DNA from: Escherichia phage ERS-1
DNA length: 64,000 bases
Reading direction: 5' to 3' (one strand)
Sequence record: PP337211
The position numbers were made by a program, and so were the translations under genes. Of the stretch, positions 4,923 through 48,499 are shown one piece after another (position 1 is the stretch's first letter; each line of letters starts with the position of its first letter). The notes under the pieces were generated by a model that was given only the letters and a program-made list of their open reading frames with translations, was not told where the DNA came from and did no database searches.

Positions 4923-4927
4923 TAAAC

Positions 4928-16410: not shown

Positions 16411-16968
16411 ATGAGTGATGACAACACGATGGACAGGCGTGATGATCGACCTGGAGACGATGGCGACCGGCCCCAGCGCCGGGGTCGTTTGTCGGGGCCA
16501 TCCGTCGTTCAACTGCCGAACCGGATTGGTGAAGCCGGACCTGTTCGAGGTGGACGTGGACCTTCACGCCGACGCTGGGCGGCGAGGTCGATGCTTCCGG
16601 CGGTCGGTCTGGCGGGACCAGGTGGACCCTGCCCAGCGCTGGCCGAAGGCGATGCGCTCCGCGCTGACCGACCTCGCCCTCCTGGTCGGGGTACCCGGAC
16701 CGAAGCGGGTCTGGGCCGGGGCTGTCCTTTGACGTTGCCATCTAGGGTTACTATCGCCGGCGGGCGTCCCGATCCCCTGGCATACTCCGCGCTGATGCTG
16801 ACACCCGAACCGTGTATGACCTGGCGAAGGAGCGGGGCTGGTCGAAGCCGGAGGGGGAACGGGGCCGTTCTGCCGCCTGGAGGACTGCCGCTGCCGTACC
16901 CTTGCCGTCCATCAGCGCCCTGAACGTCCTCCGGGGCAGCCTGAAGGAGAACCCGGTAATTGGCTGAC
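16411..16968 (+). pseudogene. DnaQ/DEDD-like 3'-5' exonuclease, frame-disrupted
   Basis: AAGGAGA RBS then ATG 16411; Exo I-like motif VMIDLETMATGPSAGVV (16439-16489) sits in a different frame from the start codon; protein-like C-terminus ...SISALNVLRGSLKENPVIG ending at 16968 in a third frame. Confidence 0.35.
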
Positions 16969-19900
16969 GAATCGACTTGAAGGATGGAATTCCCTTCCCC
17001 CCTTGCGGACCGCGAAGTGGCCCGGATCGCGGAGGAGGCGGCGACACACCGCCCGGGAGCCGGCGACTGTGACCTGTGTGGCGAATGGAGCGGGAGGCTG
17101 GTGGAGGAGTCTGTGCGCCCTGTCGGACCGCCCGGGCTTTGCCGGTGAATCGAAGAAGTTGTATGAGGGCTCTACTTCTTGCAGGCCCCCCGCCACTCTC
17201 CTTCGTTGCAGGTACCGGCCTGAAAATGGAGAACGGCGATGACCTGGATTTCCGCCTCCAACCCGACACCCGCGCCACTGCCCCGCTTCGTGGCCGGTTT
17301 CACTGTCCTCGCCTCTGGCGGTAGCCCTCCGCGACCCTCGGCTACGCCTTCAGCCGCTAGAGCGTGGTTCCTGGCCTGGTCCGGCGACTCTGCATGGCAT
17401 GCTGGAGGATGTACCGTGAAGGACGTGTACTGGAACCTGGCCCACTACCCCCGTCTGGAAGGCTCGGGTGCCCCCGCCCTCGCCCTCCGAAGTTCCTGGC
17501 GTCATCCCCGACCGTCGCCCGAATTGAAGCCCTGGGTGGAGTTCCGCGCCCCGAAGGCTGCGCCGGTGGTGAAGGCGGGAGCGCTTCTGCCAGGGGCGCC
17601 GGGTGCCCGCCCCGCGCCCGGGCTGGCCAGTCCTGATGGAGCTGGCAAGCCCTGGTCCGCCGCTGCTCCATGGTCCAGCCCCGCGAAAGTCCGGTCGGCG
17701 TAGGAAGGACGGAACCGATCCTCGCCGGCGAGCGCCTGGGCTCGCCGCGGGCCTTCGACCACCACCCGGGTTGAAGGAGCCCGCGTGTATCTGGAAGGAT
17801 GAGCCGCCGCTGGAGGGAAAGGCCCGAGGAAGATGGAAGCGAGTACCAGAAGCGGGAGGGCTCCGGCCCTCCCCCCCGCGGGTCGAAAAAAGTTGTCTGC
17901 TGGGCTGACCTTCTTCGGGTTGGGTCACTTTTTGTTAGGCCGTAGAAATGGAGAACTGAAATCAGCCGACTCCCGCCCAGGTCGCTGCCCGCGAACTGAT
18001 CGCAGGCTGGGGCTCGCCTCGCTGGGCGATGTCCGGGTTGTCAAGCCGCTGACCCTCCCGGCCGGAGTACCTCCGCGGCCCGCTCCTTCGCCGGTGACCG
18101 CGCGATCCGCCGGATCGGTGCCGGTCCTCCGCGGGACGTCCCCCTGGCAGCTGATCGGCTTCGGACCTCGCGGAGGTCGCCGGGCCCTCTGGAAGTCGGC
18201 TGCCGTTGACCGGGAGGGCCTGGCTCTCCCCCTCCCGGAGAAGGAGCCCCTTGTGAACCGGTGGCCGCCTTCCCCACCCCCTCCCCTCGTCCCCACTCCT
18301 GTTCATCGGAGTCGGGGAGCTGGGGCTGCTCTTCACCCTCCGCGAGACGGAGCTGAAGGCCGTCCCGGGTCCTGGCCCACGGACGCGGTGGTGAATGGCG
18401 TGTATCGGGGTCCTCCGAGGTCCGTGCTCCCGTGAAGAACCTGAGCCGGGACCGACGAAGCCTTCGAGAAGGCCCGGAAGCCTCTGCAGCGTATGGGCCG
18501 AGCCGGTGACCTCCCGCGACTCCCTGCGCGAGGAAATGAACGCGATTCACCGCGTGACGCTGCGGAGCTGGAGCGCCGGGAGCGCGAGCGGAAGGAGCGC
18601 GAGGACCGCCTGGGCCGCGGAACGGGCCGCGGAGGAGGAGGAGAAGCGCCTGTACCTTCCTGGGCTGGAAGTTTGCCTTCGGACCTACGCGTGGCGAGTT
18701 CCCAGGCCCCGCGGGCTGGCCTCCGCCGGTCGATCCAGCCTCCGGACTTCGAGGAAGGTGGCCTGATGCGCCTGACCGCCCGTGAGGTCGCCCGCCGGGT
18801 CCCTGTCCTCGCCCGCCGAAGCCGAAGCCCGACCTGTACGTGGGCGAGCCGAGAGTGCATCACCTTCGACGTGACCGTGGTGCGCCGTACCCTTGCGCCC
18901 GTGACGCCTGGAACGGCTACGGTATCGAGACGGTCCAGGCGTTGCGATGATCGACCGCGCGACCGGGGCCTGCCTCGTGTCCAAGTCCGGGGCCTTCTAC
19001 GCGGAGGAAGGCGAGGAGCTGAAGATCAAGGCCACCGTGAAGGAGCACGCGGAGCACCGCGGCCAGGCCCAGACCGTTGTCCAGCGGGTCGCGGTGCTGG
19101 AGGACTACCGGATGCGCCGGGAACCTCTCAGCTCGCGGTTGTTCGGAGGGCGAGCTGTACGCCGCCTGCACCAGGACCCCCTCACCGGGGCTCTTACGCA
19201 GTGGCCTTTGCCGGAGCCCTCGGGGAGGCCCGGCCGTCGCCCTCGTTGACTGGACTCGCTGAAGTGGACGGGTCACCTGCCCGGGCTTACCGCGTGGGTG
19301 ATTAAGCTTCGCGCTTGGCGGACGCCCTCGTGCGATCCTTCGGAGCTGACCGGGCGTTCCGCGCGTCGGGCGATGAGTTCGCCGTTATGGGTGATAGCCG
19401 TGAACGTCTGCCCGGGCTCGCTTCTCCGCGCGAGGGTCCGGGTTTCTGCTTCGGACGGGGATCGGAGGCGGCGGAGGCGGACGGCGACCTGGCGCGTCGA
19501 GGGGCGGAGGGGGAGCGGTCCGGCCTTCGGGGCCGCGCGAGGGCTCCTCGACCGCCTTGGGGTCGATCATCGACCTCCGGGGGGCTTTACTTCTTCGGAG
19601 GCCCCCCGTCACACTTCTTTGTCGGGCGGTCCGGACCCGGAGAACGGCTGCCGGGGCGGCTGGGCATTTACTGTCTCCCCTGTCCAGGCCACGGACCTGC
19701 GCCTCCAAAGTTCTCCCGACCTTCTTTCGGGCGTGACTTCCTCCGGGTCCAAACGGCCCTGGACCGCCTCCTTAGATGGCGGAGGAGTAGGACGGTGCGC
19801 ACTGGTTCATGTACAAGCTGTCCAACGGTGCGACTGACCTGGCCCCGGCGATCACCGACCGGAAGCTGCGACTGACCGTGGACACCAACGGCTACGGGCG

Positions 19901-21825: not shown

Positions 21826-22490
21826 ATGTCCCTGGCTGAGTTCGAGGACCGCGTGGCGGATCCCCTGCCTCATCGTGGTCACCACCGGGAGCCCTGACGT
21901 GCCCGCGAAGTGCTGCGGCCCGCCTGAAGATCGCTACCCGGCGGAAGGCGGATGCGGTGAATGGGAAGTCCGCGACCGCCGCGGACGCCCGCCCCCTGGC
22001 CTGGAGCGGGGTATGACGGAGGCGGAGCGCGAAGCGGTTGACCTGGCCGTGTTCGATCCGTGCGGAGGACCGGCGATGACCTGCGTGCGCGTCCCCGGGG
22101 GTCGCTTGCCGTCGCCCTCTTCCGGCTCCGCCTCGCGGACGGCTCCTGCGCGTCGGAGCCCTGCCACCTGCGGGCTGCCTCTTCCGCGACCGGCGGCTGG
22201 CGTCTTCACACGAGTGGTGGAGGACCCCTGCGATCTGCGCCGCCCTGGACTGGTCCTTCAACGAGGAAAACGGGCCGACCGCCCTCGCCGCGGGATGCCC
22301 CGCCGGGTGGTCCCGCGGTGCCGACTGGTCGAGTCGGAGGCCGAAGGCTGCGGAAAACCGGCGGGCTCCCCCTCCTTCTCCCTTCCACCGGGTGCGCTTG
22401 GGTTACGGGAGTGCGCTTGGGTTCGGCTCCAAAAGTATGAAGGGGTGCGTGGCGGGAAGTTGTAGCCGTCTGGGGTTCCTGCCTTGCGCT
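21826..22490 (+). pseudogene. hypothetical protein, last gene before island 1; frame-disrupted
   Basis: GGGAGGTGAACG-ATG at 21813-21828 (MSLAEFEDRVADPL then stop); protein-like text resumes in other frames (GMTEAEREAVDLAVFDPCGGPAMTCVRVPGGRL; ICAALDWSFNEENGPTALAAGCPAGW); stop at 22488-22490. Confidence 0.35.
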
Positions 22491-22597
22491 TAGGTTACTT
22501 GGGATTCTTACCTGAAACAAATTTGCCCAGGGTTGACCCGGCGGACCGGCCTGAGAATCCTTGTTGAGGCTTCCGGCTGTCCGAGGGCTTCCTGGGG

Positions 22598-22700
22598 CTA
22601 AGGTAAGTAAGTTAAGTAAGTTAAGTATCTATCTATCTATCTATCTATAAAGGGCTGTTTTATATGGCCTTTTTGCCCGCTTGACTTTTTACTTTTTCGG
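22598..22700 (+). promoter_or_regulatory. island 1: AAGGTAAGTAAGTTAAGTAAGTTAAG (stops in all three frames) + (TATC)6 microsatellite + TATAAA + TTGACT + T-rich run
   Basis: Directly read; AT-rich intergenic module between the 22490 stop and the SD+GTG start at 22927; homologous inverted copy at 63420-63515. Confidence 0.7.
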
Positions 22701-22926
22701 ACGTGGAAGTGAAGCGCGACCCCTCGAACCTAAGCGGAGGACGCCGCGTGCCTGCTTGGGTCTGTTGCCCGTCGCTCCCGCGCCTCCCCCGCGGGCGAGC
22801 GCGACCCGCCCTTGGCGAACGCAGGCTTCGCCAGACTCGCGGCGAGGATGTCCTTGGGCGTGAGGCCGGGACGGATCGCCGCGTGATGCGCGATTGACGG
22901 GCGGTGCTGCCCAAGGGGGAGGTGAT

Positions 22927-24000
22927 GTGCCCATTGAGAAACTGAAGCCGAAGCCGATGGTGCCCTTGCCCTTGGATGGAAGCAGTACCTGGAGTTGTTC
23001 CGCACGTCCCGACCTGGGTGGGTGGAAGTACCGTGCGCGGAGGCGTGGGCGTCTCCGGCTCCGCCGTTCCACTATGCCGTTGAAGAATGACCCGGAGTTT
23101 GCCCTGGCTCTGCAGGACGCCCGCCAAGCGTGGATTGATGAGATCCTGTTGCGCGGCCCTGAAGCGGGCGCGGGACGGCGCGGCAGCGCCCGATCGGTCG
23201 GGGAAGTTCAAGGACGAAATTATTGGATGAGCGGGTGTACTGTGATTCGCTGATGGCCTTGACGCTCCGCGCCCGCCGTGCGGAGTTCGGGAGGACGGGA
23301 GGACGTGGCCTGTATCACTGCCCTCGGCCCGGTGGGCGCCGATCGTCCCGGGCCCCGGCGTCGACCGGACGACTGGGAATTGTTTGGGACCTCGCCCGCG
23401 GGACCGTGGGCCGTCCGACCGGGAGGGCGATGTTCGCCTGGTCCCAAGCGGGCAGGCGGTTGCCATCGCCGCCCGCCCGGACTACCCGATCGAGCGGCGC
23501 GAGGCGGAGCCCGGCGAGCTGCGGGCACCACGTGGACCCGGAGACGGGAAGGAGTCGGAGGCGACCTGGTGCGGGTACGGGTTGCAGCTCGCCTTCCTCG
23601 GCGTCCCGATCTTCGAGGTGCTGTATGAGGGGACGCGCGGCCCGGGCAAGACCGACTGCCGATGGACTTCCTCCAGCACGTGGGGAAGGGCTACGGTTGG
23701 AGCGGCGGGGTCCCCGTTCCGTCTGGCAGGGACCCCCGCTGTCGGACGTGATCAGACACAAAACCAACAAGTGGTTCAAGCGTTTCTTCCCGGCTAAGTA
23801 CAGGCAAGGTGGGTTGGCGACCTTCCCGGCACGGCGAGGAGCTGCTGCTGTGTCGGCGGTCGCCGGAGGATTATTGGAACTACCCACGGCCACGTGCCCG
23901 TGGATTGGCTGGGAAGAACTCTTGGGCTGGGCCTGACAGCGCCACCGTTGCGACGTCCTGCCGCCGCTCCCAAGCCGGGGATGCCCCGCCGCGACCCGGG
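22927..24000 (+). pseudogene. P-loop NTPase-containing coding region (copy 1), candidate packaging/terminase-like ATPase, frame-disrupted
   Basis: GGGGGAGGTG RBS then GTG 22927; Walker A GTRGPGKTD at 23630-23656; further protein-like segments in shifting frames (MPLKNDPEFALALQDARQAWIDEILL; DFLQHVGKGYGW; SDVIRHKTNKWFKRFFPAKYRQGG). Confidence 0.35.
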
Positions 24001-25688
24001 CGACCGGCCCCACGGCCCCGCCCCTGGCTGGGTCAGGCCCGCTCCCGCCTCCCCCGTTGCGCGGTCGGGTGATCCTGGACGCGATGCGAGACGGCGAGCG
24101 CGAACCGCCCCGGGTCGCCTTCCCGGTTCCTTTCCCATGAGAACCGGGTTGCTCCTCGCTGACCCGGAGGGCCTGGTATTCGAGCCGCGGCCCGGAACCC
24201 CTCCGACTCGCCGCCTGGCTCCACGGCTCCTGCAGGTTGTTTGCGGGAGGATGTTGTACGAGGCTTGCACCGCGGGACGCACCGCGGCGCCCTCCGTCCC
24301 GCTGTCGGTGATCCCGAAGCGGTGGAAGATCGACCTGCGGCTTCCACCGGGCCGGAGCCCTTTGCCGTCCTGTGGTGGGCGGAGTCGAATGGGAGCCGTT
24401 CGAGCGGAATGGCCGCGTGTACGGAAGGTGCGGGGGCGATCTGTACCTGATCCTGTAGCGGGTACGGCTGGAACGGGAACGCGAGCAGGGCGTCCTGCGG
24501 CTCGCCTCGGAGGTCGCCCAGTGGGTGAAGGACCGGGAGGAGGATTGGGCGCTGGAAGGTCGGGTCAGCCCTGGCCCCCGCGACCTTCTCCTCACGTGGA
24601 GGTATGGGGCCTGGATTGCTGTGGAGGCGGAGAGAGGGTGTGCGCCTGGACGCCCGCGGGAGGCTGGGCTCGCGGGTGGGCTGGGAGGGGTTGGCTGTCG
24701 GAGGGCGCTGCCTCCGGCGGCGGGGACCGCGCCAGGTCCCTGGGCTGTTCGGTTTTTTCGACCCGTGCTGGTGTCGTCCAGACGGTCCCGCGCTGCCCCG
24801 CGATGAGGTGTACCTGGGATGACGTGAAGGCGGAGGCGGAGGACCGGTTGGTGACGCGACCGCTACCGCGTGCGGGGTAAGCTGCGTGGTGCGGTGGTGG
24901 CCCGCAGAGGCTCGGCCGGGTCCTCGCCTTCGGGCGAGAATCCGCGAACCTGGAGAACCGACGGCCGGCGAGACGGCAGCCCTGCCGACCTGCGGGGCGT
25001 ATTAACCGCGCTCCCGCGCTGGCCCACGCTCCAGACGCCGCCTGGGCGGGACCGAAGGGCGCGCGAGGCGGGCGAGACGTACCTACCCCGCCCTCGGAGG
25101 AGACGGCAGGGTGGGCTATCGGGAGCGCCTGGCCTCCGCCGCTCCTCCTCGGCGGTTGAACCTGGGCGCCTGGACCTGCCCTGCAGCGGAGCCCTTTGCC
25201 AGCCGATCAAGCCGGCCAGGACGTGCCCGGAGGCGATCCAGGAGATGATCCTGCCTGACGTGGACCTCCTGGGGCTGCCCACGCGTTCGCCCGTCCTGTG
25301 GTTCCGCCAGCCTATCCGGTGAGGCCCTGGCCTCCTCGTCCAGACCGCCTCGCCCGGCCCCGCGGAGGATGGCCTACCCGGACCTGGCGGATGACCGCCG
25401 GGAGGGCCTGCGCCCTGACTGGGTGATGATCCAAGCCGGAGGCGCCCGCTGTTGGCCCGGTCGGAGGTGATCAAATGGGGCCCGAGTCCTCTGCGTGCTG
25501 CTGTCCAAGTTACGAGGCGGAGGCAGGACGGCTTCGCGCAGGCTTGGGAGCGCTGTCCGCGTCCTGGAGCTGGGCCTTGTCCCGGCTCTGGCAGCCGGTG
25601 AGAAGTTGGTGGTCCCGCAAGGAGGAGTGGGTGCTGGCGGATGAGCGGGCCATGGGGCTGAACCACGTCCCTGTGGTTGCCTTTACGC

Positions 25689-25719
25689 CAGACGACTACA
25701 AACGGAATCTACAGCACCT
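25689..25719 (-). repeat. right 31-bp inverted repeat of block A (reverse complement reads aggtgctgtagattccgtttgtagtcgtctg)
   Basis: 30/31 match to 4928-4958 in inverted orientation. Confidence 0.8.
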
Positions 25720-25725
25720 GAGTAT

Positions 25726-25771
25726 GTATTGCTAAGGTTAGAGGGAAACACGATAGAATCCAACAGCACCT
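25726..25771 (-). repeat. partial J-unit, variant b, inverted (aggtgctgt-tggattctatcgtgtttccctc-taaccttagcaatac on the minus strand)
   Basis: Shares the aggtgctgt head and taaccttagcaatac tail with the J-units; middle resembles the 26008-26040 variant. Confidence 0.7.
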
Positions 25772-25996
25772 AAAAAGGTTCAACTTTTTACTAAATAATA
25801 AATGTTGTAGTATCTTCTTAAAACGAAAAATTTAATTTGCTTTAAAACCTTCCCAATTTTTTTTGCCTTTTTTTAACATACGTCAGAACATGGAAGAATG
25901 GTGGCCGTTTTTTACACTGTGAAGAAACAATTTTGAACTTTTAAATGACTTCCATTTATATTGTTTTAATTTCCTTTTTTCCCGTTTGTTGTTAAT
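25772..25996. other. AT-rich spacer without a convincing ORF, phage-like (T-even-like) composition, T-runs
   Basis: Sharp GC drop between two GC-rich blocks; only very short ORFs; ends in a T11 run leading into J-unit 2. Confidence 0.4.
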
Positions 25997-26098
25997 TTTT
26001 TTTTTTAGGTGCTGTTCCGGATTTATCGTGTTTCCTGATTAACCTTAGCAATACGTAACTGAACGAAGTACATAAAAACACCAATTGCTAAGGTTAAA
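25997..26098 (+). repeat. J-unit copy 2: T11 + aggtgctgt + variant spacer + 14-bp palindrome arms around a 32-nt loop
   Basis: Same architecture and arm sequence as 4678-4780. Confidence 0.8.
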
Positions 26099-26099
26099 A

Positions 26100-27216
26100 G
26101 GTTACACAAACCCTGGACAAGCAGCACCCTCCCTTTGCGGTGTTCTCCGGCTCCGCCTTGTCCTTTGAGAGCGGAGGGGTGTCGCTTGTTGATGCAGCGG
26201 GCGATGGCGAACATGGACCAGAGGTGCGGGTGGTCCGCGAGGGCTGACGGATGCTTCTCGTCCGGTCCTGGTCCCACCCTTCCGGTTGGCTCCTGGAAGA
26301 TGTTGGGTACTGCCTGTTCCAGACCGGGTCCGCGGTCGGGCCGGGGCTTCCCGGCCTTGCGGTCCGGTAGATGTCGCGCCGGGCCTTCAAGGCGGCGACG
26401 TCGTCGACGCGCGGGGTGGTCGGTGCTGGGTCCTGGTCGGGCCCTCCGATGACGGCCTTGATGTCCTTCAGGGCCGTCTCCCTGTGGATGTCGCGGACCG
26501 TCTCGCCGTCCGCCAGGGCCTCCCGCGGACCTGGGCGATGGCGCGGTGCTTGTTGGTCCTTCCCTGGTCCTCCTCGACGGGCTTCCCGCCGTCGCGCTCC
26601 TGGATGTGCTTTGGCTTCCAGCGGCGTGTCCTGAAGGCCGGGTCGCCGCCGTTCGCCTTCGACCGCCACCCTGCGTTGGTACCTGTAGATGGTGCTGATG
26701 GCCGCCCTCAAACCTTACCGCCTTCACGTCCGGGTCCCGCCCAACCAGCTCCGCGACGGCCTTGGCGGCGGCTTGGGTCTTGATCCGGTCTGGGCCGGCG
26801 GTGGTCGCTCCGGCGGCGGCGGTGTAGTCCCCGATGATGGCGATGCCGTCCGGGGCGTGTTGCCGGGATCGGCTTGTGGTCCGGGGACGATGACGTTGAT
26901 GACGCGGGCGGATCGCGGGCCAGGCTGCGCGGGGGTGTGCTCTGCCGGAGCCGTATGCCCTGCCCGTCGATGTACTTCGGTTGGTTTTCCAGTTTGGTTG
27001 AAAACGGCGGAGCCGGAGCCCCCGCCTGGGGTTGCTGTTGGACCCTGCGCGATCGGATGATCTTGCGCTCGCCGCCGTCCTCCTCCGGCGGGGCTGGTTT
27101 CCCGACCTCTGAGTCTGGGCGAGCGGCCTTCGCCGCCCCAGGTTCCGAACCGCGGGCTCGGCTCGTCGTCGTCCGCGCGGTGGAGACCTGGCCGGTGGGG
27201 GGCGGCTTCCCCTCAC
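26100..27216 (-). pseudogene. hypothetical protein, frame-disrupted
   Basis: Protein-like segments in two minus frames (DGIAIIGDYTAAAGATTAGPDRIKTQAAAKAVAELVGRDPDVKAV; EALADGETVRDIHRETALKDIKAVIGGPDQDPAPTTPRVDDVAALKARRDIYRTARPG). Confidence 0.3.
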
Positions 27217-27521
27217 CTCCTGGAGGGCTGGCCCGTCGGTCCGGGTGAAGGTTCGGGACGCGCTGGCCGTGGCGGCCCCGCGGCGATCATTTCACGCCTT
27301 CCAAAGCCAGTGCCGGTTCGCCGGTTCCGGGCTTCCCGCGGCGGTCCAGGCGTGTCGTCGCGTAGGTCGTTGCCGCGCTCCGTCGCCGGTTCGGTACCTG
27401 CCGGCGGGCTTCGACCCGGCACGGCTCGCGATGGTCTTTCCGGGCTCCGGCCTGGTTCTCCGCGGGCTGTCGGCGAAGGCTTTGGTGCGCCCCGGGCTGA
27501 ACCGCTTTTGGAGGTGTTCGA

Positions 27522-28655
27522 TCATTGCTGGAGCCCTGCTGTAGCCCGCTTCCCGAATTTTGCGATTGCGTGGTCGTTGCCGACCGCGGCCTGGCGCTCG
27601 AAGCTGTGGCGGATGTCGTCGTGGGTGACGATCCCCGGGATTACCGGATTGACCTGATGGAGGTGTACATGCCCGACGCGCGCTCGCGATTTCGTCGGGA
27701 TGGTCCTGAAGGCTGATGGCCCCGGAGGCTCGTGCCGTTGTGGTCGTTGCCGGTGTTCGGTGACTTCTGGGCGTAGCTGTAGGGGTTCCGCTTCGGAGGT
27801 CGATGGCCGGATGGGGTAGCAGACGGCCGGGAAGAAGACTGGGCCGGGAGTTGGCGAAGGCTTCCGCCCCCGCCTGGGTGTTATGGGGCGCTTTGAAACG
27901 GTGAAGGGGTCCGTGAAGCTGGAGAAGCAGCCCGCGGCGGAGGTCCGGACTTCGAGAGGCATTTTGCGGACCTGCTCGCCGTAGTTCACCGGGACGCTGA
28001 TGAGGCCGGTGCCGCGGTAGCCCCGGAACCCGCTGTCGACGTAGAAGGCGCAACCCACTGTAGCCCCATAAGGCTCCGTCAGGATCGCCTCGCTGCAGGG
28101 GCGGGCGCGGGAGCCTCGCTTGTCGTTGTGCTTGTCCTGGCACCTGCCCTGAAGGGGCTTGGCGTTCGGGATGCGGATGTGCGGGAGGTAGGTGACGACC
28201 CTTTGAAGCCGGTAGGCCCAGCCCTTCACCTCCTTCTTGTCGTCTCTCCTTCGCGTTGCGGACCGTCCCCCCTGCCTTGCCGGAACTTCGCGCGCTGGCG
28301 CCGGTCCTGCACCCTTCTCCCCCATCGGGCCCGGAACTCCCGTTGGTTCGGTCCGGCGGCGAAATACTTGTAAGCCTCCTGAGCGGCTTCGCCGGTGCCT
28401 TCCTGCCCTTGCCTGCGTGGTCCGGTCATTCTCCTTCAACTGTGAAAAAAGTCTTGAGCGCCTTACCCGGAAGAAGTAAGCGGCGTTAATCGGCCCCGGC
28501 TCGCCACGTTGTTTCCGGGAGGTCCCCTGGCCTTCGCTCCTCCGAATGCCGGCGACCGGCGAACTGCCGGAACCGCGCGGCGACCCTTCCGCGTCATATC
28601 CTCCAGGTTGTCCTTTTGGGACCCGAGGGAACAAATGCTCGGGGTTGACGCACAA
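27522..28655 (-). pseudogene. hypothetical protein with possible metal-dependent hydrolase motifs
   Basis: Long protein-like stretch (KGWAYRLQRVVTYLPHIRIPNAKPLQGRCQDKHNDKRG...) and GHVHLH; family not identified. Confidence 0.25.
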
Positions 28656-30700
28656 CGGTCGGTCGCAGCGATGAACTTACGTTATCGCCGTCGGGATGGA
28701 CCGTCGAACCTGGCCGAAGGATAGCCGATGAGTGCCGTCTTAGTCTCATGTTGGCGTGCTGCTTATCATTGACTGGGAGCCGTTGGTTGGTCCCGTCTCC
28801 GGTCTTGATAGTGGGCGTCGAAGTAGGTGAGCCGGTCCGTCGATTACCCCATGTTCGGAATGATGGGGCGTGGGATGGACGAAGCCCGTTGAGCGGTTGC
28901 TGCGCTTTAGCTTTTGGGTTGGTAACGGGTTGGGGGAACGGGGCGGAGGCGTCCCGGGCTGCGTCCGCGTACCCGTAGCCCTCGTCGTATTACCGGTCAC
29001 CCGGTTGCCGGGTGCCTGGCCGCGGCCTTCCCCATGTACTCCCGGGTGGCGTCCTGGCTCTGCAGTATCCTTGTGGAGGATGACGTTGTAGTTGCGGGCC
29101 CGCCCCCTCCAAGCCCTCTTCAGTGCCCGGCGGCGACCGTCCCCGAGCTGAGACTGATGACCGGGGTCCCGGAGTCCGGGAGGTGCGGGGCGGTGCGGAC
29201 GGCCTCCGCGGGCGTTCTCCGTGATCGACTCCGGGAGCTTCGGGTGTTCGGCTGTAGCTGTCGTGGGAGTTCTCCCGTGCTTCTTGGCCGGACGGGGATC
29301 GCGGAGCGGCCCGCCGGCATGTCCAGGTCCGCCCCGAGCTGGCGAGCGCGCCCGCCGCCGGACGCGCGGGGCGTCCGCGGCCCCGTCGCGCTTGAAGCGG
29401 GGCCAGTAGTCCACGGCCTGTTTCCCAGCTGCTGGCAGGCGACCGCCCGGCCCGCCTTCGAGCGGTACGTGTCCGGCTGCCGATGGTGGTTCTTGTGGTC
29501 TCGATATGGGCGAGGCCCCGCCAATCTCGCTGAAGGACGGCACCGGGAGCGGGTGCTCTCCCCGCTTCAGGATCGGACCCCGTTGAGCGGGCGTTTGACC
29601 GGGCGTCGTTGACGACGTTGCTGCCTGGCGTGGTCGAGGAAGGCCCGTGCGGCGGAGGGCGGCCTGCCCGGTTCGAGCCCGCCGTCGATTTCCCGGATGT
29701 TGTTCCGTGGGTAGTGGCCGTTCGACGGTGGGGATTTTCCATTTACACAGCACCGTTCTACCTCTGCATGTTCGGCGGGTGGTTGCCCGGGTGGGCGGGG
29801 CGAGGTCCGCGAACCGCTGGTTTGCAGTCCGCCACCCGGACGCTTGATCGCCTCGCGCTTGGGCTTCGCGTTCTCCGGGTACTGTGAGCCTCGCGCTGCT
29901 CCGCGTTGCGGCCTTCTCCGGGTCCTTGAAGGTTAAGGCGGCGTCGTGCCGAAGTCGGCCGCACTTCACCGGTTCGACCTGTCCGCGATCTTGAAGCCGA
30001 TCCGGTCGGACCGAAGCCGTCGTGCTCCTGGGCGCGGGCGGAGACGGTGCGGAAGGGCAGGCGCTCCTCCGTCGCCCGGGCTCTCCCGTGCCCCGCCTCC
30101 GGGCGGTCGCCGTAGCGGGCCTGGAGGGAGGTTGCGGAGTCACGGTATCGGCCTGTAGCGGCGGTGCTCGCGTCCCCGGGGGCCTGTGCTCCCCCGGCGG
30201 GCGTCTCCTCCTCGTCGCGGGCCGCGACCTTCCCGGTGCGGCAACTCCTCGCCCTCCTCCACCAGGAAGGAGGCCACCCGGCGTGGTAGCTCCAGAATAA
30301 CCGAGGAGCCCGGGAGCTGCGGCACGGAGAAGTCCCCCGCCTCCTCCGCCCGAACCAGGGCCGTGTACACGGGTCCAGATCGCCGGTGGTGATCAGGTGT
30401 CGGCCGGGGTCGTCTCGATGTCCGGTCGCGGGGCAAGTTCTGCTCGGCTTTTTCTGGGTATGCGTGACTGATTTTCCCGGCTCAGGTCTTTGCGATGTCC
30501 GGTTCAGAGAATTGGCGACGAAGGAAGGCTCCGGCGGGACTTTTCGTCACGTGATACGGGAATGGACTTGTCTGGCGCCGCCGTCGCCGTCCTCCGTGAT
30601 CCCTGGTGAACCCGGCAGGAGCTTGAAGGGCTCCGTTCTGTATCCCCGCTCCGCCGGGCACCTGCCCGGCGGGGGTGCGGTGTGCGCTCCGAGGCTCCCG

Positions 30701-31363
30701 TTACCCTTGCCCTTGTCGGCCTGGCGGGTCTGGCGGGCGTCTGCCTTCGGCGGACTTTGCGGCTCGTGGGCCGGGATCGCGTGGCCTTCCGGGACCTCCG
30801 ACGTGGAACCGCTCGTGCCGTCCGCGTCGAAGGCGGAGCGGACCCCGCAGCCCTTTGGTCGCTTGTCCTGCTGAAGCCGGAGTGGGCGGTGGCTTCGGTC
30901 CTGGGCTTGTTGCTGCCCTTGGGCTTCGACCTGTTCGGCCGGTCCTCCTGTTTGGGCGGGACCCCCTACGTCGGGAGACGGCCGCTCCGAGCCCTCGCGG
31001 CGGGGGATCGGGGCGTGGCCCGGGCGGCAGGTTGGCGCCGCGCGGGCGCGGGCCTTCCTCCTCCGCGGACTTCGGAGCCTTCTGGGCCTTCGGAGGCGAC
31101 GGGCGGGGGTTGCGGTTTGTTTGCGGTTTCGACCTTCTGGGTTCGGCCTGCTGCTGCTCGGCACTTCCGGGCGCGCTTCGGCGGCGCCAGGCTTCTGTGT
31201 GGGGGTATGGCGGTGGTCTTGTCGGCAAGCGGTGGACGTTCGGGACGGACTTGCCGTTGCGGAAGGTGCCGATGACTTCGTCGGGACCTGCTCGACCGGG
31301 CCGGGCTGGACCTCGCTGGGAGGCTTCGGTGTAGGCGACGTTGTTGAAGTTGATGGTGTTCAT
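30701..31363 (-). CDS. hypothetical protein with strong RBS (AGAAGGAG, 6 nt, ATG at 31363); frame decays after ~50 codons
   Basis: RC of 31361-31378 gives AGAAGGAGCCTACC-ATG; N-terminus MNTINFNNVAYTEASQ... Confidence 0.4.
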   Translation of the reverse strand: MNTINFNNVAYTEASQRGPARPGRAGPDEVIGTFRNGKSVPNVHRLPTRPPPYPHTEAWRRRSAPGSAEQQQAEPRRSKPQTNRNPRPSPPKAQKAPKSAEEEGPRPRGANLPPGPRPDPPPRGLGAAVSRRRGSRPNRRTGRTGRSPRAATSPGPKPPPTPASAGQATKGLRGPLRLRRGRHERFHVGGPGRPRDPGPRAAKSAEGRRPPDPPGRQGQG

Positions 31364-31380
31364 GGTAGGCTCCTTCTGGG

Positions 31381-31460
31381 GTTGAGGTGCGATCTTGTTC
31401 GACCGTGAGAGAAATCTTAACCCTGCCCCCGAAGAAGTAAAGTGGTTTGACTAAACTTTT
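31381..31460 (-). promoter_or_regulatory. lower-GC intergenic island with sigma70-like elements (TTTACT-17-TAAGAT on the minus strand) and a TTGACT/T-run motif resembling the islands
   Basis: Read on the minus strand upstream of the 31363 start. Confidence 0.3.
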
Positions 31461-31949
31461 TCAGTTTCCCGTCCGAAGGCCAGGTGCCCGTTGGACGGCG
31501 GAGGGCGAACCGTTGGCGCCTCTTCCCAGAAGGCCCGGGCGGCGTCTCGTGCCCTGTTCTCCTGTACCAATGGTTGCGCCCCGAGGTGTGCGGGAACCCA
31601 GCGACCTCGAAGCCCCAGCGATGTTGGGTTGCACTGGTGGAAGTCCAGGTGCTGGGCCGGGTAGCCGAAAGCCTCTGCGACGTTCCGCCCAACGAGGATG
31701 ACGTGCCGACCGCCCAACAAGGGCTTCCCTCGCGGCTGCGGGCCCCGCGTCCCGGGCGGGCCGCTGTCGTCCCGCTTCCAGCGCCCCGGGAAGGTGTGGA
31801 GCAGGTGGTGCGGTCGAAGGTCTTGAGGTAGTCCTTGGGCGATAGGCCTGCCTGCTCGCCCGACGCCCTCCCGCGGAGGACCGCGGAGGGGAGCCAGGGG
31901 CCGGTCCGGGTCCGCGTTAGGTCCTGGCGCTGGCCGATCTGGGCTTGTT

Positions 31950-33400
31950 CGTTCTTTCGGGCACATTTCTCTGGGTGACGTTCTGTTTGAGGTCCGCTCC
32001 GGCACCGGGATGGCCCTTTGAGGGCGTCCCGGTTGGAGTACCCGGTGGTGATCTGGGTGATCACCGCCTTTGGCTTGTCTTTGCACCTCCGTCCGGTGGC
32101 CGGTCGATGCGGTCGGCTTGCCGGCTCCTCCGCCGGGCGTCCGCTTCGGCTCGCCGCCGTCATCCTTCACCCGAGGATGCCCACCGCTTCCCGCCAGCGG
32201 AAGGTCGTGCAGCCCTTCGCCCCGCCTTCCCGGCGCCGCTGTCTCGAAGTCCTCCCGCTGATGTCGGAGCGCCGCTCGCTCGCCGCGGAATCGACCCGCT
32301 GGGCGGCGACGGTCGGGCGGCGACGTGTTCCTGGACGGTGACGCGGGAGCGCCTTGCCGCGGACCCGACGCGGTCCGCAGTCCTCCCTCCCCCGCGCCGC
32401 GGGCCGCTGAACTCGATTGCGGTGCGGTCGAAGCTGTAGGCGAGTCGCTTCGGTCCCGGAGCTGACGTTGTCGGCCCAGGCTGACGGTCCCGGTCGGGGC
32501 GATGGAAGTGAGGTGGGAGTTGCGGATGCCGTATTTGGCGATGGCGTCCTGCGTCCTCGCGGAGGGTCTTGATGAACTGGCCCTGAAGGTACTTGTCCTT
32601 GTCGAACTTCGGGAAGGAGCCCTTGACCTTGGCGATGTGGGCGCTGGCCGTAGGGCTGCGCCTGCGTGTTGGTACCCTTGCCTCGAAGGCGAGGAAGGCG
32701 GGCGAACCGTACGATGGCCTGGGCTTCGGCAGCGTTGGCCAGGCCGGTGATCCCGAGGCCCTTGCGGCGCTTGTCCTTGGCTTCCTGCTTCTGCGCGGCG
32801 GTAGATCGCGCGATCGTACCGTTGTGCCATTGCGTGGACCTTCCTGCGGGATGTCCTCGCGGAACTGGTCCCGTCGAAGGCGTAGTGGCCCGCCCCGTCC
32901 TCTAAGATGTACTTTACCTGTTGAAGGAGCCGGTGGTGCCGTAGGGCGGTAGGGTTGTCGTCCGTGGGGTTCGTGGCGGCGATGGTCTTGGGTTGGGCGT
33001 CGTTTGCGGTTGATCGCGTCGATGAACTTACGTCCCCGGCTCTGCCGGGTTGCCGGCTCGTGGCGATTGCGTCCTGGCGCCCGGGCGTCCGCTTCGCGGT
33101 AGGTCCGGCCCTCGAAGGTGAGGGGAACGGCTCGCCGGAGGCGACGCCGGCGCTGTCGGTGATGGCGACGGAGACGTTGAAGCCTGTTGCTTCTGGTCCG
33201 CTGAAGGGGATGATGGCCGCCGCTTCTCGGGGCTCCCTCCGGGAGTCGGTCCTCGAGGTCCGAGCGGCTGAACGTCCTTCCCGGGTCGCTTGGCGTGACG
33301 AACTCCTCGATGTCGGGATGGTCCGCGCATCACCCCCCCCGGGCTCCGCGGCGATGGCCGGCAGGAGGCGACGCACTGGGATCGCGTCGAAGATGTGCAT
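31950..33400 (-). pseudogene. ribonucleotide reductase large subunit (class I or II, NrdA/E/J-like), frame-disrupted
   Basis: Minus-strand motif AKYGIRNSHLTSIAPTGTVSLG at 32474-32533, then ADNVSSGTEA and RLAYSFDRTAIEF in shifted frames, resembling the conserved YGIRNSLL..APT...EP...Y.RR...GEF region of class I R1 proteins as I remember it; gene bounds uncertain. Confidence 0.45.
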
Positions 33401-33799
33401 GAAGCTGATGGGGCCGGAGGAGTGGGACTGGAGCTTGCGGATCAGGTCGCCGCGAGGACGGAGGGTGCTGAAGTCAGGCCGATCCCGCCGCCCTTCCCGG
33501 TTGTGGCCTGCGGCTTCCGCGGCCCGGATTGACGGAGCCTTCGCCGTCCGCTTGAAGCTGTCGTTGATCGTCCCGGAGACGTAGCCTGTCCGTATGGCGT
33601 GACCTGGCGAGTGGAGCCCGTCGCGGACCGGATGCGGCCCGCCGGGAGGAAGTGGTACGCCTGCGAGGGCGTCCCGGAAGTCCGCGAAGTGCTGGTCATT
33701 GTCCTTCAGGGCCGCGGCGATCCGGTTCGTGGCCTCGCGGAAGGACTCGCCGCTGCCGCGGTACTTCTGGGCGTGTAGTTCTGTGAGTAGGGTACTTGA

Positions 33800-35650
33800 G
33801 GACCTGTCGGTGAGTCTCCTCGAAGGGTTGAGGGCTTTCTATCGTGTTGTTGCTCCTGTTCTTGGGCTAGGCGGTGAACGAGGTCGATGCGTTCCGCGGC
33901 CCGGGTAATGGCGGTGTACAACCCTTTCCTTCCGGCTCCTTCCCGTACCCCGTCCGGGGTGGCAGGACGTTGTTCCTTTGGGAGCCCTGCGACTTGTGGA
34001 CGGTGAGCGCACCTGCCCTGTCGAACTCCTCCGCGCCTTCCGCTCCCAGACTTCGGCTTGTTGCCGTGGAAGTAGTGGGGGTGGGCGCTGACTTCGACCT
34101 TCGCGCCGTCCTCGCCTTCGATGTCCTTGATGGAGTCGCTGTTGAAGATCGTGTCACGGCGGACCTTCCGGCTGGCCGTCGAGCAGGCCCGCCCTTCGTG
34201 GTCGTGAGGGGCCTTTGCCGTCGCCTTCCTGGGTGGGCGCGTCCGCCCGAGGAGTTCCCGGGACGTCGTCGCTCGTGATTCTCGTGGCGTTCCTGCCGGG
34301 TCAGGAGCTGGTCGGTGGACAGTACCATGTCCCGGAGTTCTTCGCGTGGTGGCGGCCATAGGAATCACGCGGCTGGCACCGTAGTCGCCGGGGGCGGAGC
34401 ACGCGGCCCTCGCGGACCTCCTTGGAGGTCCGGTCATCGGGTTGTCCTGGGCCTGGCGGTGAATCTCCGCGAGGACGTCGGGCTTGTCTTGAAGCAAGGG
34501 CGCTGCCGGGCGGGAGCTGTCCGGGATCGCCCGGGTGAGGACCGGTGCCGAAGTGAGGCCCTCCCCCCCGCCTGCCCGGACGGCGGAAGAATTCGCTTGC
34601 CGAGCGCGGCCCTCCAACCTGGGCGACTCCGCGTTGAGCTGGAAGGTCGGGCGGGCGAGGTTGATCTGCTCCGCCTTGATCGCCGGATCGACTTCTCCGG
34701 TCAGGGTTTCCGGGACGGGCTTGCGAGTGAGTAGCCGCGCCCGCTCCGCTTGGAGTTCCCTGGCGCTGCTGCGACTTGTCCTTGGGCGTGTAGATGAAGC
34801 TGCGAATGGTAATTCTCCGTTGGTCGCCCCGGACTTCGTGAGGACGTGAGCGGCCTTGCCGGTGTAGGCGGCGAAGGTGCCGGGACCTTTGACGGTCGCG
34901 GCGAGGTGTTTGGCCGGGTGGCCTGCCGGTTCCGGCGTACCCGGCGAGCTGGAAGGCAGGGCTTGTCCCGGGTCTTGACGTTGCCTGTCCTGGTTGGCGC
35001 GGTCTGCTGTTGGCGTACTCCGCGATGACCGTTCTCCGTTTCTGATAAGAAGGGGGGCCCTTGAAGGCCCCTGAAGGCACGCCGAGGGGGCGGGCCGTCC
35101 GGGCTGGTCCTCCCGGGTATCGGGTTGGCTGCCGCCGCCTGCGCCTGGGCTTCTCGTCGCGGCAGCCGGAGCTGGCGACGGGCGGCGCGGGCCTTGCCCT
35201 GCTGATCGTCGATTCGATGTCGGCGGACTGGAACAGCGGGTCATCGGGCAGGAGGCGAGCCGTGGGCGTTCTCTCGCCGTCGAAGGCGATGGTGTCCTGT
35301 TGAAGAAGGGCCCTTGTCGTCTGTCGGCTCGAGGCGGTAGCGGTGGGCGGCTGCGGAGCCGGGATGCGGCGACCGTCCCGGAATCCTGGATGGTCTTGGC
35401 CTTGTACCCTCTGCCCTTGTACTTCTTGATCTTCGTGGAGCCGAAGGCCCGACCGCTTCCCAGGCGTTGCCGCTGTTGCGCGTGCCGGCCCCGGTGGTGT
35501 AAGGTTCCGATTGGCTCGTTGCCGTCCGGGGGTGCTGCAGCTGCCGTGCTCGAGGACGCGGCCTTGGCGGTTCGCCGGGTCGCCGTCGACTCTGGGATGC
35601 CCGTTGCACCGCCGCCGCATCGCGGGGCTTCCACCACCGCACGTGCTGGG
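33800..35650 (-). pseudogene. RecD/TraA-like superfamily 1 DNA helicase, frame-disrupted
   Basis: Motif I LAGYAGTG (34926-34949), Ia FAAYTGKAAHVL (~34838-34870), V LTVHKSQGSQ (33975-34007), VI GLYTAITRA (33901-33921) in correct order and spacing but three different frames. Confidence 0.6.
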
Positions 35651-44700: not shown

Positions 44701-47700
44701 TTCCCCCGTTGGGATGGACCGCCCGCCTTTTCTGGTACGGGTGGAGCCTTCCGTCCCATCTGGTTGGGTGTGACCTTCCTCCCCCGGCCGGCAGGCCGGC
44801 TCGCCCTGCCCATTGGATTCCCCACCGGACTCGGGTACTCCTCGTTGCGGTTCGCTGAAGAGTTGATTGCAAGGACAAGCCCGACCCTGTTGGGGGTCGG
44901 CGAATAGTCCACGGGTTCATCCGTGAGCACCGCCTCCGCCGGCCCTGACCCGCTCTAGCGTAGGTCGGGCCGGCGCCAGGAGTGACCCTCCGAATTGTTC
45001 AAGGAATCGAACGAGCTGGAAGGAGACCCTGCCGTCGTCGTTGGCCGTGGTATAGTGAACCTGCCGACCGAAGGGACCTCCGGCAGTCCGTAGTTACCGC
45101 CGTCGGATCCTGCGGGTGGCGTTTCCGGTATAGTTGCGGGATGTTCCCCGCCCGTAGCGTAGAAGAACCGCCCCGCTCCGGGCCGCGGGTCAGGTTGGTG
45201 AGCCGAAGCCCTGGGCGCTGGAAGATAGTGGATGCCACCCTTGGCCTGTAGATGGTCTTGCTGTCCGGCAGCGGTAGGATGGCAATGGCCCCAAAGTAGA
45301 TGGGCAGCGGAAGATTGGCATGCCCTTGTCCCCGTTCGAGGTCGAGTGCGCAGCGGATAGCCGGGCTGGCGATCCGGCGAGCCCCCGCGCAGCCGTCCGA
45401 ACCGTTGACCGCGATTGGTATCGCCCGGAGCGAGGAACCGTTGACGGTGATGGTTTCGTTTGGGCAGCTGTGGTTTAAATAGGCCGTACCCTCGTGAGGG
45501 GCTCGCGCCGGGAGCCCGCCGCCACGCGGCCGTTTACCCTGGCCGCGGCGAAGTCGTGGCTGAAACGGGTTGTTGTCCGGTCCGGTCGTGCACCGGGTTC
45601 GGCTTCACCGGTTTGTCGTGTAGAGGTGGTGCTGGTGGAACTGATTCCGGTAGGCGGTGCTGGAGTTGTGGGCCCCGCCGTTATAGGTTGTCGTGTTCTC
45701 CGCGGCGTTCTGATACCCGCTGATGCTGAGGTCCCTCGGCTCTCGACCTCGCCAGCCAAGGGAGCCCGCTGGAGTAGGACGGTGGGCCAAGGACCCACCA
45801 CGCCTTCGGTAATTGCGGTATGGAGCTTGCCTGAGCTCCGGTCGGTCGTCCCGTGTGGCCCCCGCCGCCGCCGCTGGACGGCGAGAAGGGGATGCTGGCA
45901 GGATTTGTGTCGGCCCGGCTCTCCGGTTGCGGGCTCGAGCTCGCCGCCTCCCGAAGTATGCCTTTAGCCGTCTGGGTTGCGAGGCGTCGCCCGGGCGGCC
46001 TTCGCCTGCTCGGGAGCCTGTCGTTGCCGGTGCCCGGCACGTCCGCGGTGCCGTTCGCGTAGGAATAGCGCCGCTCGGAACGGGAGCGGCGTCCTGCGGG
46101 ACCAAGGACCCCCCGACCGCCTGCGGGTAGGGGAACTGGTTGGGCGTAGGTGCGGTGACGCAAGCCCGGCAGCCTCCCTCAGGCTGGTCGCGACCTCGGC
46201 GAACTGCAAGGAGCGGCCGAGGCGCGAATGAACAGGGCAATGTGGCGTTCCCGGGGACGCGTCGGGACGGCGAGCGGGTATTGAGCCCCGAACCGGTAGG
46301 GCGCGCCCGGCTGGTCGAACGGGGCGTCGGTTGGCGTCAGTGCCCGCGTACCCGTTCGTTGACGCGTTGTACCTGCCTGCGGCGCTGTCGTACTCTGACC
46401 TGATCTCGGCGTAGATTTCGGGTTGCAGTTGCCCGTGCCTTCGGGATGACCTCCGAGCCGAAGTGGTTGGCCGTCGGTCCCGTCCGCCTCGGCGAGGAGT
46501 TCGGACCTGAAACGTTCGTTGTTCCGCTTTGGATGGTTCCTGGCAGGTCGCCCGGCCAAGATGAGCCCCGGCAGTTCCGGCAACCGCGAAGGTCGCTGTT
46601 CCCGAGGGAGGCGGGCGTCCGTCATGGTCAGGCTGTAGTCCGTGAAGTCCCGTCGTCTGAGCATCGGAGGCCAGGACCGCGGGGGGAGGCCGTTGGATGT
46701 GCCGTATGTCGGATGTGACTTGTCCGCCGCTTGACTTCGCGGGCCGTCCCAGCTTCTGTGAATTGAAGCTGACCCCCGGATAGGTTCGAGGCGTACAAAA
46801 GCGGCCAGTTATTGTGGGGTCGTTCTGTGTTGGGTTCGTGGGGTTGTGCTGAACGCGTGGGGATGGTTCTTTGCGAGGCTGGTGGCAGGGTCCGCTGGCG
46901 GCCGGTATGGGTGGCGATGTTGTCCCGGCGGTACGGCGCGCCTGCCGGGCTGGCCATGCGCCGCTCCTTCTGGGTCGCGTTCGTGGTAAGGTGATCTGAC
47001 TCGCCAGAAAGTCTCGGGTTCGTCGCGGTTCCGATTTCGTTGCCTTGTCCTTCCCGGTTGTTGTGACCTGGCGGACCGCGCCAGCGTTGCGTCGGATCCC
47101 GTTTGGAGGACCCGCTCGCCCGAGGAGCTGGTGGTAGTCCTGTTCGGGCTCGATCCGTTCAGGCCCGGATCGCGGACCGACCGCCTGCTGCCCCTCGCCA
47201 CCGCCTGACGCGCTTCGCCCCGCTCCTGGGTCGGAGTACGGATGGACCTCGCTTTGCCGGCGTAGGCGGAAGGCGACCTGCTGCGAGTCCTGCCGCCTGC
47301 CCCCCGCCAGCGGGTCCCCTTCTGCCAGGCTGGGCCTGGCGTCCTGGGCGATGATCTGGGCGACGTTCGCGCGTCGCCGCGCCGGTCGCCGCCGCGAGGG
47401 CGTAGTTGGCCGGGGCGGAGCGGAGGCGAGGGCCTTCTGAACTGCCCTTGCCGTCAATGGTTGCCGCGGCGATAGCCGCCGCCTTGCCGATTGCCGCCTG
47501 CTTCGCTCCCGACCGGACCTGCCCTGGAGGGTGGAGAAGAAGTTGCGCTGGGTGGCGGTCCGCCTGTGATCTGGGCCTGGACCCGAGCCTTCAATCGTGG
47601 GCGGTCTGCTCGCCGACGAGGTCGGCTTGCCGCGTTGCCGTTGCGGCTTTGCCTGTGCCGCCAGGTATTGTGCCGGGCTTCCACCGTACCCGCGAGAGGT

Positions 47701-48499
47701 CCGCGTCGGACTTCCCTAACCGGTTCGCCTGGGCCTGCGCGATCGCCCCCGCGGCCTGGCCGTTCGATCGCCGTGAGCTGGGCGGTGAACTCCTGCTGGG
47801 TCCGAGGATAGCCTGAAGGACCTGGTTGCGGGTTTCCGCCGCCCCGGGTCTCCCTGAACGGTGCTGCTTCTCGCCAGCTGCTTCGGGTCTGGCTCCCCAG
47901 GACGACGCCTTGATAGCGGCGTCTGTTCCCATGTAGCGGTGCTGCTGTTCGACCTCGCCGCCCCCAGGTGAGGCGGCTCGCGCCTCCTCCTCCGGCTGGC
48001 GGTTGATCGCGCCCGGGGCCGGGCGTGGTCCTTCCGCTGCTCCTCGACGGTGCCTGACCTGGGCCTTGCGCTCCGCGGTGACGGCTCGCCCCCGGTTTGT
48101 CAGAGGGGGCGAGGGCGTTGGCGTACCCCGCCGAGCTGCCCGGTGCGCGGGGATCCTACCTGTTGGTTGAGTTCATCCTGGAGTCTCGAGGGCCTTGGCC
48201 GCCTCCTCATCGCCTTTCCCGGAGGTCCGGCGACCACCGCCGTCCCTGTTCGGCGTTCCGACTCCAGCCGCGGCGACCCGCTCCTTGGAAATGTCGCGCG
48301 CGTTGATCCGCTTGTCCGGATCGCCTAAACCGCTTTCCGGATCGGCGAGGACTTCCTGGCGGAAGCCTTCCTCGGGTTCGTGCCGATGTTGGCGCCGGCG
48401 GCCTTCGGCCCTCGACGTCGCTGGTCACCGCCGCCTTCTGGCCGTCCGTCGTCGTAAGGTTTTGCCGCCGGCCTTCGCGCGTTCCCCGAGCTGGCGGGA

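Follow-up and report, generated by a model that had tools for sequence, protein, structure and literature searches.

The window analysed here, a stretch of 64,000 nucleotides recorded as Escherichia phage ERS-1 (PP337211), is very probably a string of concatenated nanopore reads, and its ribonucleotide reductase (RNR) is, with the same high confidence, the normal class II gene of a Pseudomonas phage M6-like virus, garbled by the miscalling of modified thymines. A first-pass annotation had proposed that the GC-rich block around 31950-33400 carried the relic of a class I/II RNR large subunit, lying in the same window as a T4-like anaerobic class III system, and that the two modules supported a chimera of two phage-like sources. 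Our reading rests on what was directly observed: the homology of the gene and how far it extends, the class to which its ortholog belongs, the adapters and barcodes found in the joints, and the way in which the discrepancies follow strand and sequence context. The features on which the argument turns are collected in Table 1.

Table 1. Positions of the reads, joints and genes discussed in the text, in window coordinates.
Feature	Position	Strand	Basis or remark
Tequatrovirus (T4-like) read: a-gt.x genes, gp55, nrdH, nrdG, nrdD C-terminal stub	1-4693	-	
nrdH ORF	3309-3617		T4-like read
nrdG ORF	3952-4419		T4-like read
nrdD stub, last ~77 codons	4447-4680		T4-like read; Pfam Gly_radical/NRDD matches
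Joint 1	4694-5043		Barcodes, adapter remnant, T4-like insert
Yuavirus read c	5042-25688	-	Read strand is the M6 non-coding strand
Joint 2	25689-26128		Barcodes, adapter, T4-like insert
Yuavirus read a	26130-64000	-	Read strand is the M6 coding strand; ends with BC05
Thymidine-hypermodification cluster orthologs	26189-30446	-	Coordinate mapping; Pfam on M6 proteins
gp055 ortholog, start only	26423-26189	-	Coordinate mapping
gp054 5-hmdU DNA kinase ortholog	26979-26434	-	Pfam HMUDK_HMUD1 on M6 protein
gp053 radical SAM ortholog	28424-27036	-	Pfam Radical_SAM on M6 protein
gp052 PLP enzyme ortholog	29615-28924	-	Pfam PALP on M6 protein
gp051 amino acid:DNA transferase ortholog	30446-29616	-	Pfam ADDT on M6 protein
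M6 gp047, gp048 and gp049 orthologs, downstream of the RNR gene	30712-32082	-	No small-subunit domain
Full-length ortholog of Pseudomonas phage M6 gp046, class II/NrdJ-type RNR	32082-33845	-	blastn against M6, coordinate mapping, tblastn
Motif noticed in the first-pass annotation, YGIRNSHLTSIAPTGTVSL	32474-32533	-	Undamaged island
M6 gp045 ortholog, Dda-like helicase, upstream of the RNR gene	33867-35023	-	Equally frameshifted; not an RNR small subunit

The RNR catalytic-subunit motif that had drawn attention to this region is real and lies where it had been placed, and a translated search assigned it to the RNR family. The sequence AKYGIRNSHLTSIAPTGTVSL is encoded at about 32533-32474 on the minus strand, within a 649-aa mechanical ORF (31451-33400); AIEFSGP comes next after it, but in another frame. 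The raw 649-aa ORF matched the NCBIfam profile NrdJ_Z over 31 residues only (E 4e-6), the remainder being wrong-frame sequence rich in Arg, Pro, Gly and Ala. Between 33845 and 32082, other RNR islands were found distributed across all three minus-strand frames, among them KYRGSGESFREA, FLPAGRI, DFSTLRPRGDLIRKLQSHSSGPISFMHIFDAI, DHPDIEEF, TIAATNP, ASAHIAKVKGSFPKFDKDKYLQGQFIKTLRED and EGGAKGCTTFR. Alignment with tblastn placed HSPs in these three frames over residues 16-617 of M6 gp046 (602/620 residues), a 620-aa protein labelled "ribonucleotide reductase" in its record (YP_001294554). The originally proposed interval of 31950-33400 does hold RNR sequence, but the gene is larger and extends upstream to 33845, and positions 31950-32082 belong to the gp047/gp048 orthologs outside it. 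The shifted frames that had been reported are likewise present in the sequence: compared with M6 gp046, the window copy differs by 67 indel events in 1863 nt with a net loss of 99 nt, all attributable to read errors, and only 32% of its aligned bases keep the original frame, so that it cannot be read as one ORF.

In a blastn search of a phage collection, positions 31400-34000 aligned end to end with 41 genomes at 85-86% identity, these being the genomes that covered at least 80% of the query. Most of the 41 are M6/YuA-like Pseudomonas siphoviruses (Yuavirus), the RNR gene is conserved and intact among them, and over this region each of them is about 125 nt longer than the window. The likeness to M6 gp046 and its Yuavirus orthologs (YuA, PAE1, AN14, EKU1 and others) concerns the whole gene and its neighbourhood, which are collinear, with the Dda-like helicase upstream and gp047-gp050 plus the hypermodification cluster downstream; M6 synteny extends over the entire GC block, and all M6 genes lie on one strand. 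The RNR gene occupies, next to the Dda-like helicase and upstream of the genes for the 5-hmdU kinase, transferase, PLP enzyme and radical SAM enzyme, the nucleotide-metabolism and DNA-modification region of a Yuavirus. No record in the phage collection is identical to the isolate, the best one matching it at 86%, errors included.

As to the class of the enzyme, M6 gp046 scored 517.1 bits against TIGR02504 (NrdJ_Z), above the cut-off of 399.95, and 222.8 bits against NrdE_NrdA, below the cut-off of 341; against the class I profiles as a whole (NrdE_NrdA, class Ia and class Ib) its scores were all far under the cut-offs. The RNR ten-stranded barrel domain PF02867 was recovered with an E value of 1.2e-106, and the best solved structure was Thermotoga maritima NrdJ (PDB 1XJE, E 6e-57). 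The window copy, when translated codon by codon along its alignment with M6, also had NrdJ_Z as its best profile (287.4 bits, E 2e-85, versus 126.7 bits for NrdE_NrdA), a score that lies under the cut-off because of the errors. Judged by profile and nearest structure, the gene is thus a class II, NrdJ, adenosylcobalamin-type reductase, and of the class I/II assignment made earlier the second half stands and the first does not. The M6 ortholog shares with NrdJ the RNR barrel, the TNPCGE and IAPTGT motifs and the C-terminal region, and differs from it in being short (620 aa) and in giving only a weak match to the N-terminal all-alpha domain. Aligned to 1XJE, it has the thiyl-radical Cys of TNPCGE; in the window copy this catalytic motif reads TNP-X-G, the Cys codon being corrupted because TGC contains TG. 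Several GenBank records name the Yuavirus RNR class Ib alpha, a label which the profile scores do not support.

Class II RNRs work without a radical-generating small subunit (NrdB/NrdF), and therefore none is expected for this gene. The suggestion that a small-subunit relic might lie at 29000-31400 or upstream of 33400 was not borne out, the former interval holding the orthologs of gp049, gp050 and gp051 and the latter the 5' end of the RNR gene followed by the Dda-like helicase. The Ribonuc_red_sm domain was absent from the ten flanking M6 proteins scanned (gp044, gp045 and gp047-gp054), with which the flanks of the RNR gene in the window are collinear. There is nothing novel in the underlying gene: both the class II reductase and the phage genus that carries it were already known.

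At first sight, two features favour a real mosaic phage or element, in which a decayed class I/II RNR pseudogene in the GC-rich block had been joined to T4-like class III nrd genes: the RNR homology is spread across three frames interrupted by stops, and at about 5000 the GC content rises abruptly from 33% to 69%. However, adapters and sample barcodes stand exactly at this composition step and at a second breakpoint, and three to four different barcodes occur in what would have to be one molecule. In Joint 1, positions 4694-4738 consist of GGTGCTG, BC02 (TCGATTCTGTTTGTAGTCGTCTGT) and TTAACCTTAGCAAT, followed by a degraded adapter and then by ATTGCTAAGGTTAA; an 83-nt T4-like insert at 4781-4863 is an inverted copy of 2725-2807; the BC02 unit occurs a second time at 4929-4971 (43/43 match); and at about 5010-5043 a degraded BC07-like barcode is followed by CAGCACCT, which abuts the Yuavirus sequence. 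The barcode at about 5010-5035 is probably BC07, a degraded match read by eye at a place where BLAST gave no hit. In Joint 2, BC02 (25689-25718) is followed by two copies of BC04 (25728-25770 and 26008-26052) that bracket a T4-like insert of roughly 220 nt, then by the top strand of the ONT adapter with its leader T's on the minus strand (26047-26078) and by BC05 (26084-26128, 45/45 match); the 21-nt adapter core TTCGTTCAGTTACGTATTGCT is exact. In total, barcode searches that included blastn-short placed BC02 at three sites, BC04 at two and BC05 at one, all of them within the correct flanks, where none would be expected by chance, and shuffled controls for the barcode and adapter sequences gave 0 matches. 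The native barcode and adapter sequences match published tables (PMC9229804; bioRxiv 10.1101/2023.11.26.568539). An exact search of viral and metagenome contig collections with the sequence of Joint 2 gave no match.

Both joints have the arrangement known from unsplit ONT reads, an end-of-read barcode unit passing directly into a start-of-read leader and barcode unit, with barcodes that differ between segments. Only the top adapter strand has the leader, a T-run that passes into ATGTACTTCG...; since in the window this leader lies on the minus strand, that is the direction in which the reads were sequenced. The opposite direction had also been considered, the barcode units looking symmetric, and was ruled out by the position of the leader. 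With the minus-strand direction, the errors fall on T and not on A.

The segments between the joints come from unrelated or discontiguous sources. Positions 1-4690 (33% GC) are 97% identical to Tequatrovirus phages, and the remainder is made up of two Yuavirus segments of opposite orientation. On the window plus strand, read c corresponds to M6 47092-59445, then to 1.8 kb absent from the M6 record and then to M6 1-6703, and read a runs from M6 3136 to 42501 in the read direction, window positions 26189-63823 corresponding to M6 42501 back to 3136. As a result of the 3.5-kb overlap of the two reads, M6 3.1-6.7 kb is present twice in the window, inverted. The stretch at 16955-18776 was inspected as a further candidate site for adapters and contains none, being genuine Yuavirus sequence that is present in other genomes and missing from the incomplete M6 RefSeq record.

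These observations make the T4-like/Yuavirus chimera a technical one, formed by concatenated nanopore reads whose joints still carry adapter and barcode sequence. The earlier view that two phage sources are combined in the window holds, but their joining is no biological mosaic. The window is the reverse complement of at least five joined reads from an Oxford Nanopore ligation library in a multiplexed phage run, namely one T4-like, two short T4-like and two Yuavirus reads of three to four barcoded samples, set head to tail; either the software may not have split the reads, or an unpolished assembly may have merged them. The AT-rich read resembles the T4 anaerobic class III system (NrdD/NrdG, with NrdH nearby) in its nrdH, its nrdG and the glycyl-radical C-terminus of its nrdD. 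It had been described as carrying nrdH-nrdG-nrdD, of which the nrdH and nrdG ORFs are there and nrdD is represented only by its last codons (Table 1), because the T4-like read starts at that point; the gene was cut by a read start and not by recombination, which again speaks against a mosaic. The NrdJ-type gene was correctly recognised as unrelated to T4-like nrdD/nrdG, since the two are different enzyme families, and it also belongs to a different phage and a different read from the T4-like genes (BC02), not to the same genome. As the chimera is technical, the window is silent on the presence of two nucleotide-metabolism modules within one genome.

The state of the RNR gene was compared with that of its neighbours. 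Across the 17 M6-like genes tested (18 alignments, with TerL aligned twice), indel events numbered 35-51 per kb, and the original frame was kept by only 19-46% of the aligned bases. The RNR gene, with 36 indel events per kb, had the lowest substitution rate of the genes tested (8.7%). Every M6-like gene tested was equally damaged, and the damage is therefore not specific to the RNR. That all genes of the GC block are equally broken also argues against a mosaic carrying one decayed pseudogene, and the term "relic" has to be abandoned for a gene that is full length, no more damaged than those around it, and damaged in a strand- and TG-specific manner, as basecalling errors would be.

This specificity was pronounced. 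On the read strand, the T of TG was wrong at a rate of 79% in read a and 71% in read c, versus 14% and 8% for TC and 6-10% for C, values that were scored against M6, which is about 92% identical at best, so that the baseline is partly true divergence. The discrepancy peaked at the T of TG (0.765) and decayed symmetrically to 0.077 beyond 8 nt; T residues more than 5 nt away from any TG were at the baseline (TC 5.8%, TA 8.2%, TT 10.1%), and isolated TGs were wrong at 66-80% whatever the flanking bases. Deletions at the T of TG reached a rate of 20-25%, and the damage spread over about ±5 nt. The AT skew over 26-64 kb, mostly between -0.2 and -0.47, reflects the T lost from the read strand. By contrast, the T4-like read showed only 2-4% discrepancy from its reference; looked at for errors due to modified cytosine, it had a slight excess at C (4.2% versus 2.2-2.7% for the other bases). 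The A following a pyrimidine was also raised (CA 22%, TA 28%, mostly A to G), and the model does not account for these changes.

Reads a and c sample opposite genomic strands, and in both of them it is the TG of the read strand that is affected. The duplicated 3.5 kb gave an internal comparison, the two copies being only 58% identical to each other although the identity of each to M6 is about 78-80%. One copy reproduced the T of TG on the M6 plus strand in 69% of cases and the A of CA in 21%; for the other copy the values were 15% and 63%. Such reciprocal damage is a strand-specific reading error and no evolutionary process. Given the barcoded joints, and damage that depends on TG and on the strand read and is mirrored between the two copies of the duplicated segment, we regard a real mosaic as extremely unlikely. 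The strong motif specificity of the discrepancies could be invoked in favour of a biological origin, whereby editing, hypermutation or a diversity-generating mechanism had acted on the phage DNA, but such a process would ruin every phage gene, the deletions at T and the ±5 nt spread of the damage are the footprint of a pore k-mer, and in two reads that are oppositely oriented on the genome the damage tracks the strand with the adapter leader. Moreover, the public ONT-looking record of phage EKU1 (PV844354) has the same TG bias at lower amplitude and appears to carry the same artefact in a milder form. The probability left to a biological origin is vanishingly small.

The distribution of the errors within the RNR gene follows the same rule. 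Codons without TG within 2 nt were 87.5% identical to M6, versus 37% for codons near a TG, and among the residues of M6 gp046 none of 9 Trp, 3 of 17 Met and 3 of 13 Cys were preserved. The motif at 32474-32533 (YGIRNSHLTSIAPTGT) is an undamaged island because it is a stretch without TG. It could still be argued that the chimera is technical and that the Yuavirus RNR is nonetheless truly inactivated, or unusually diverged, beneath the errors: these mask single-base resolution, and 12.5% of the TG-free codons do differ from M6. We consider this very unlikely for a gene whose substitution rate is the lowest of those tested, which keeps long undamaged islands of 30-40 residues with full identity to M6, and which is conserved and intact in the 41 related genomes mentioned above. 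We infer that the real RNR gene is intact in the phage and that the window holds a miscalled copy of it.

A probable source of the miscalls is suggested by what is known of M6. In its virion DNA, 5-(2-aminoethyl)-dU (5-NedU) replaces about 30% of T; its synthesis starts from 5-hmdU and depends on gp51-gp55, among them a kinase, transferases, a PLP enzyme and a radical SAM enzyme (PMC5889632). Sites that resist restriction point to TG/TC as the context, and TG is what the M6 5-hmdU kinase modifies (PMC6449724). The window carries nucleotide-level orthologs of the genes for the 5-hmdU DNA kinase, the amino acid:DNA transferase(s), the PLP enzyme and the radical SAM enzyme, the same gene set as described for M6 (PMC5889632). 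TG accounts for 32.5% of the T's in the aligned M6 sequence, and the share of T's affected here, about a third, agrees with the reported 30%, as their context does with the reported preference for TG; the published restriction data suggest TG or TC as the context, whereas in our data TC was at the baseline. From the literature and the homology of the modification cluster, 5-NedU would be the likely cause of the TG miscalls.

If so, the basecaller would miscall or drop the modified T and its neighbours, k-mers with the modified base being uninterpretable to it, and in these data the effect is confined to the TG dinucleotides of the strand passing through the pore. The triplets ATG, GTG, TTG, CTG, TGC, TGG and TGA each contain TG. 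Start codons, TGA stops, Met, Trp and Cys codons and many Val and Leu codons are accordingly destroyed, with a frame shift every ~25-30 nt, and it is this loss of TG codons together with the frame shifts that gives the gene the appearance of a pseudogene.

The pairing of an NrdJ-type reductase with a T4 class III system is thus an artefact, and its biological weight is small. Untrimmed and unsplit reads yield false mosaic genomes. For phages with hypermodified thymidine, native nanopore reads can look as if the entire genome had decayed into pseudogenes, with a strong AT skew, since the loss of TG removes the three start codons used by bacteria, the stop TGA and the codons for Met, Trp and Cys. 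As a mildly informative by-product, the footprint of the errors points to TG as the context that is modified, and not to TC. We lean slightly towards reading the error pattern as a single-molecule footprint of hypermodification, which would fall on the T in TG with any flanks and not on TC, at about three quarters or more of the sites and on both strands. If this is true, the TG-only specificity would be sharper than the TG/TC context derived from restriction data, and uncorrected nanopore reads could map thymidine modification directly.

The error pattern of the two Yuavirus reads, marked chiefly by the miscalled T of TG on the read strand (the minus strand of the window), which is attributed to a modified thymine, was accompanied by discrepancies at a second base. 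Across 5042-63823, 17% of the read-strand A's lying away from any TG were discrepant with the Pseudomonas phage M6 reference, mostly as A to G changes, and the excess was concentrated after a pyrimidine (CA 22% and TA 28%, versus 11-12% for GA and AA). A TG on one strand corresponds to a CA on the complementary strand. Over 26000-64000 the AT skew was extreme, mostly between -0.2 and -0.47, and very long spurious ORFs were found in several frames of the GC-rich block. Start codons containing TG, as well as TGA stops, were largely erased in this interval, and mechanical ORF lists are therefore meaningless there.

A comparable signature was found in a public record, GenBank PV844354.1 (Pseudomonas phage EKU1; 6001-20722), in which the RNR, helicase and photolyase-like genes are each annotated in several fragments. 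When compared to M6, the T of TG was discrepant in 33% of cases and most other contexts in 2-5%, and the deposited sequence is probably affected by the same modified-T nanopore artefact, to a milder degree. The record was deposited as a 'complete genome'.

Many GenBank Yuavirus records label the RNR gene (M6 gp046 and its orthologs) as 'ribonucleotide reductase of class Ib (aerobic), alpha subunit'. In profile scoring, NrdJ_Z was above its cut-off and all class I models were below theirs, which places the gene in class II, contrary to those labels.

The first of the two T4-like inserts was a 99% inverted copy of 2725-2807 in the long T4-like read. In both AT-rich reads, the barcode flank was immediately adjoined by A/T homopolymers 11-13 nt long. 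Judged from the reading frame and not from an alignment, the end (4447-4470, minus strand) of the nrdD stub, the C-terminal remainder of the T4-like gene, appears to carry a single extra base (AATCTTAGGCAAAAATAAAG), an insertion by which a premature TAA would come into frame. The extra base is apparently a read error of the usual kind, the T4-like read being clean otherwise.

Inserts and Yuavirus segments located in the window
Feature	Position (strand)	Remarks
T4-like inserts, very short	4781-4863; 25772-26000	flanked by adapters
Yuavirus stretch, 1.8 kb	16955-18776	placed between end and start of the M6 RefSeq record
Yuavirus small and large terminase region	22200-25750 (+); 60200-63900 (-)	M6 3.1-6.7 kb; two inverted copies

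The 1.8-kb stretch is missing from NC_007809 (M6), whose last gene is marked incomplete; other Yuavirus genomes, phi_M6 (PP944330) among them, contain it. The Yuavirus read continues across the point where the two ends of the M6 reference meet, as is compatible with a template that is circularly permuted or concatemeric, or with incompleteness of the reference. The two copies of the terminase region come from reads with different barcodes and share only 58% identity because of the strand-specific errors in each, and the true sequence of this region could be rebuilt by merging both copies.
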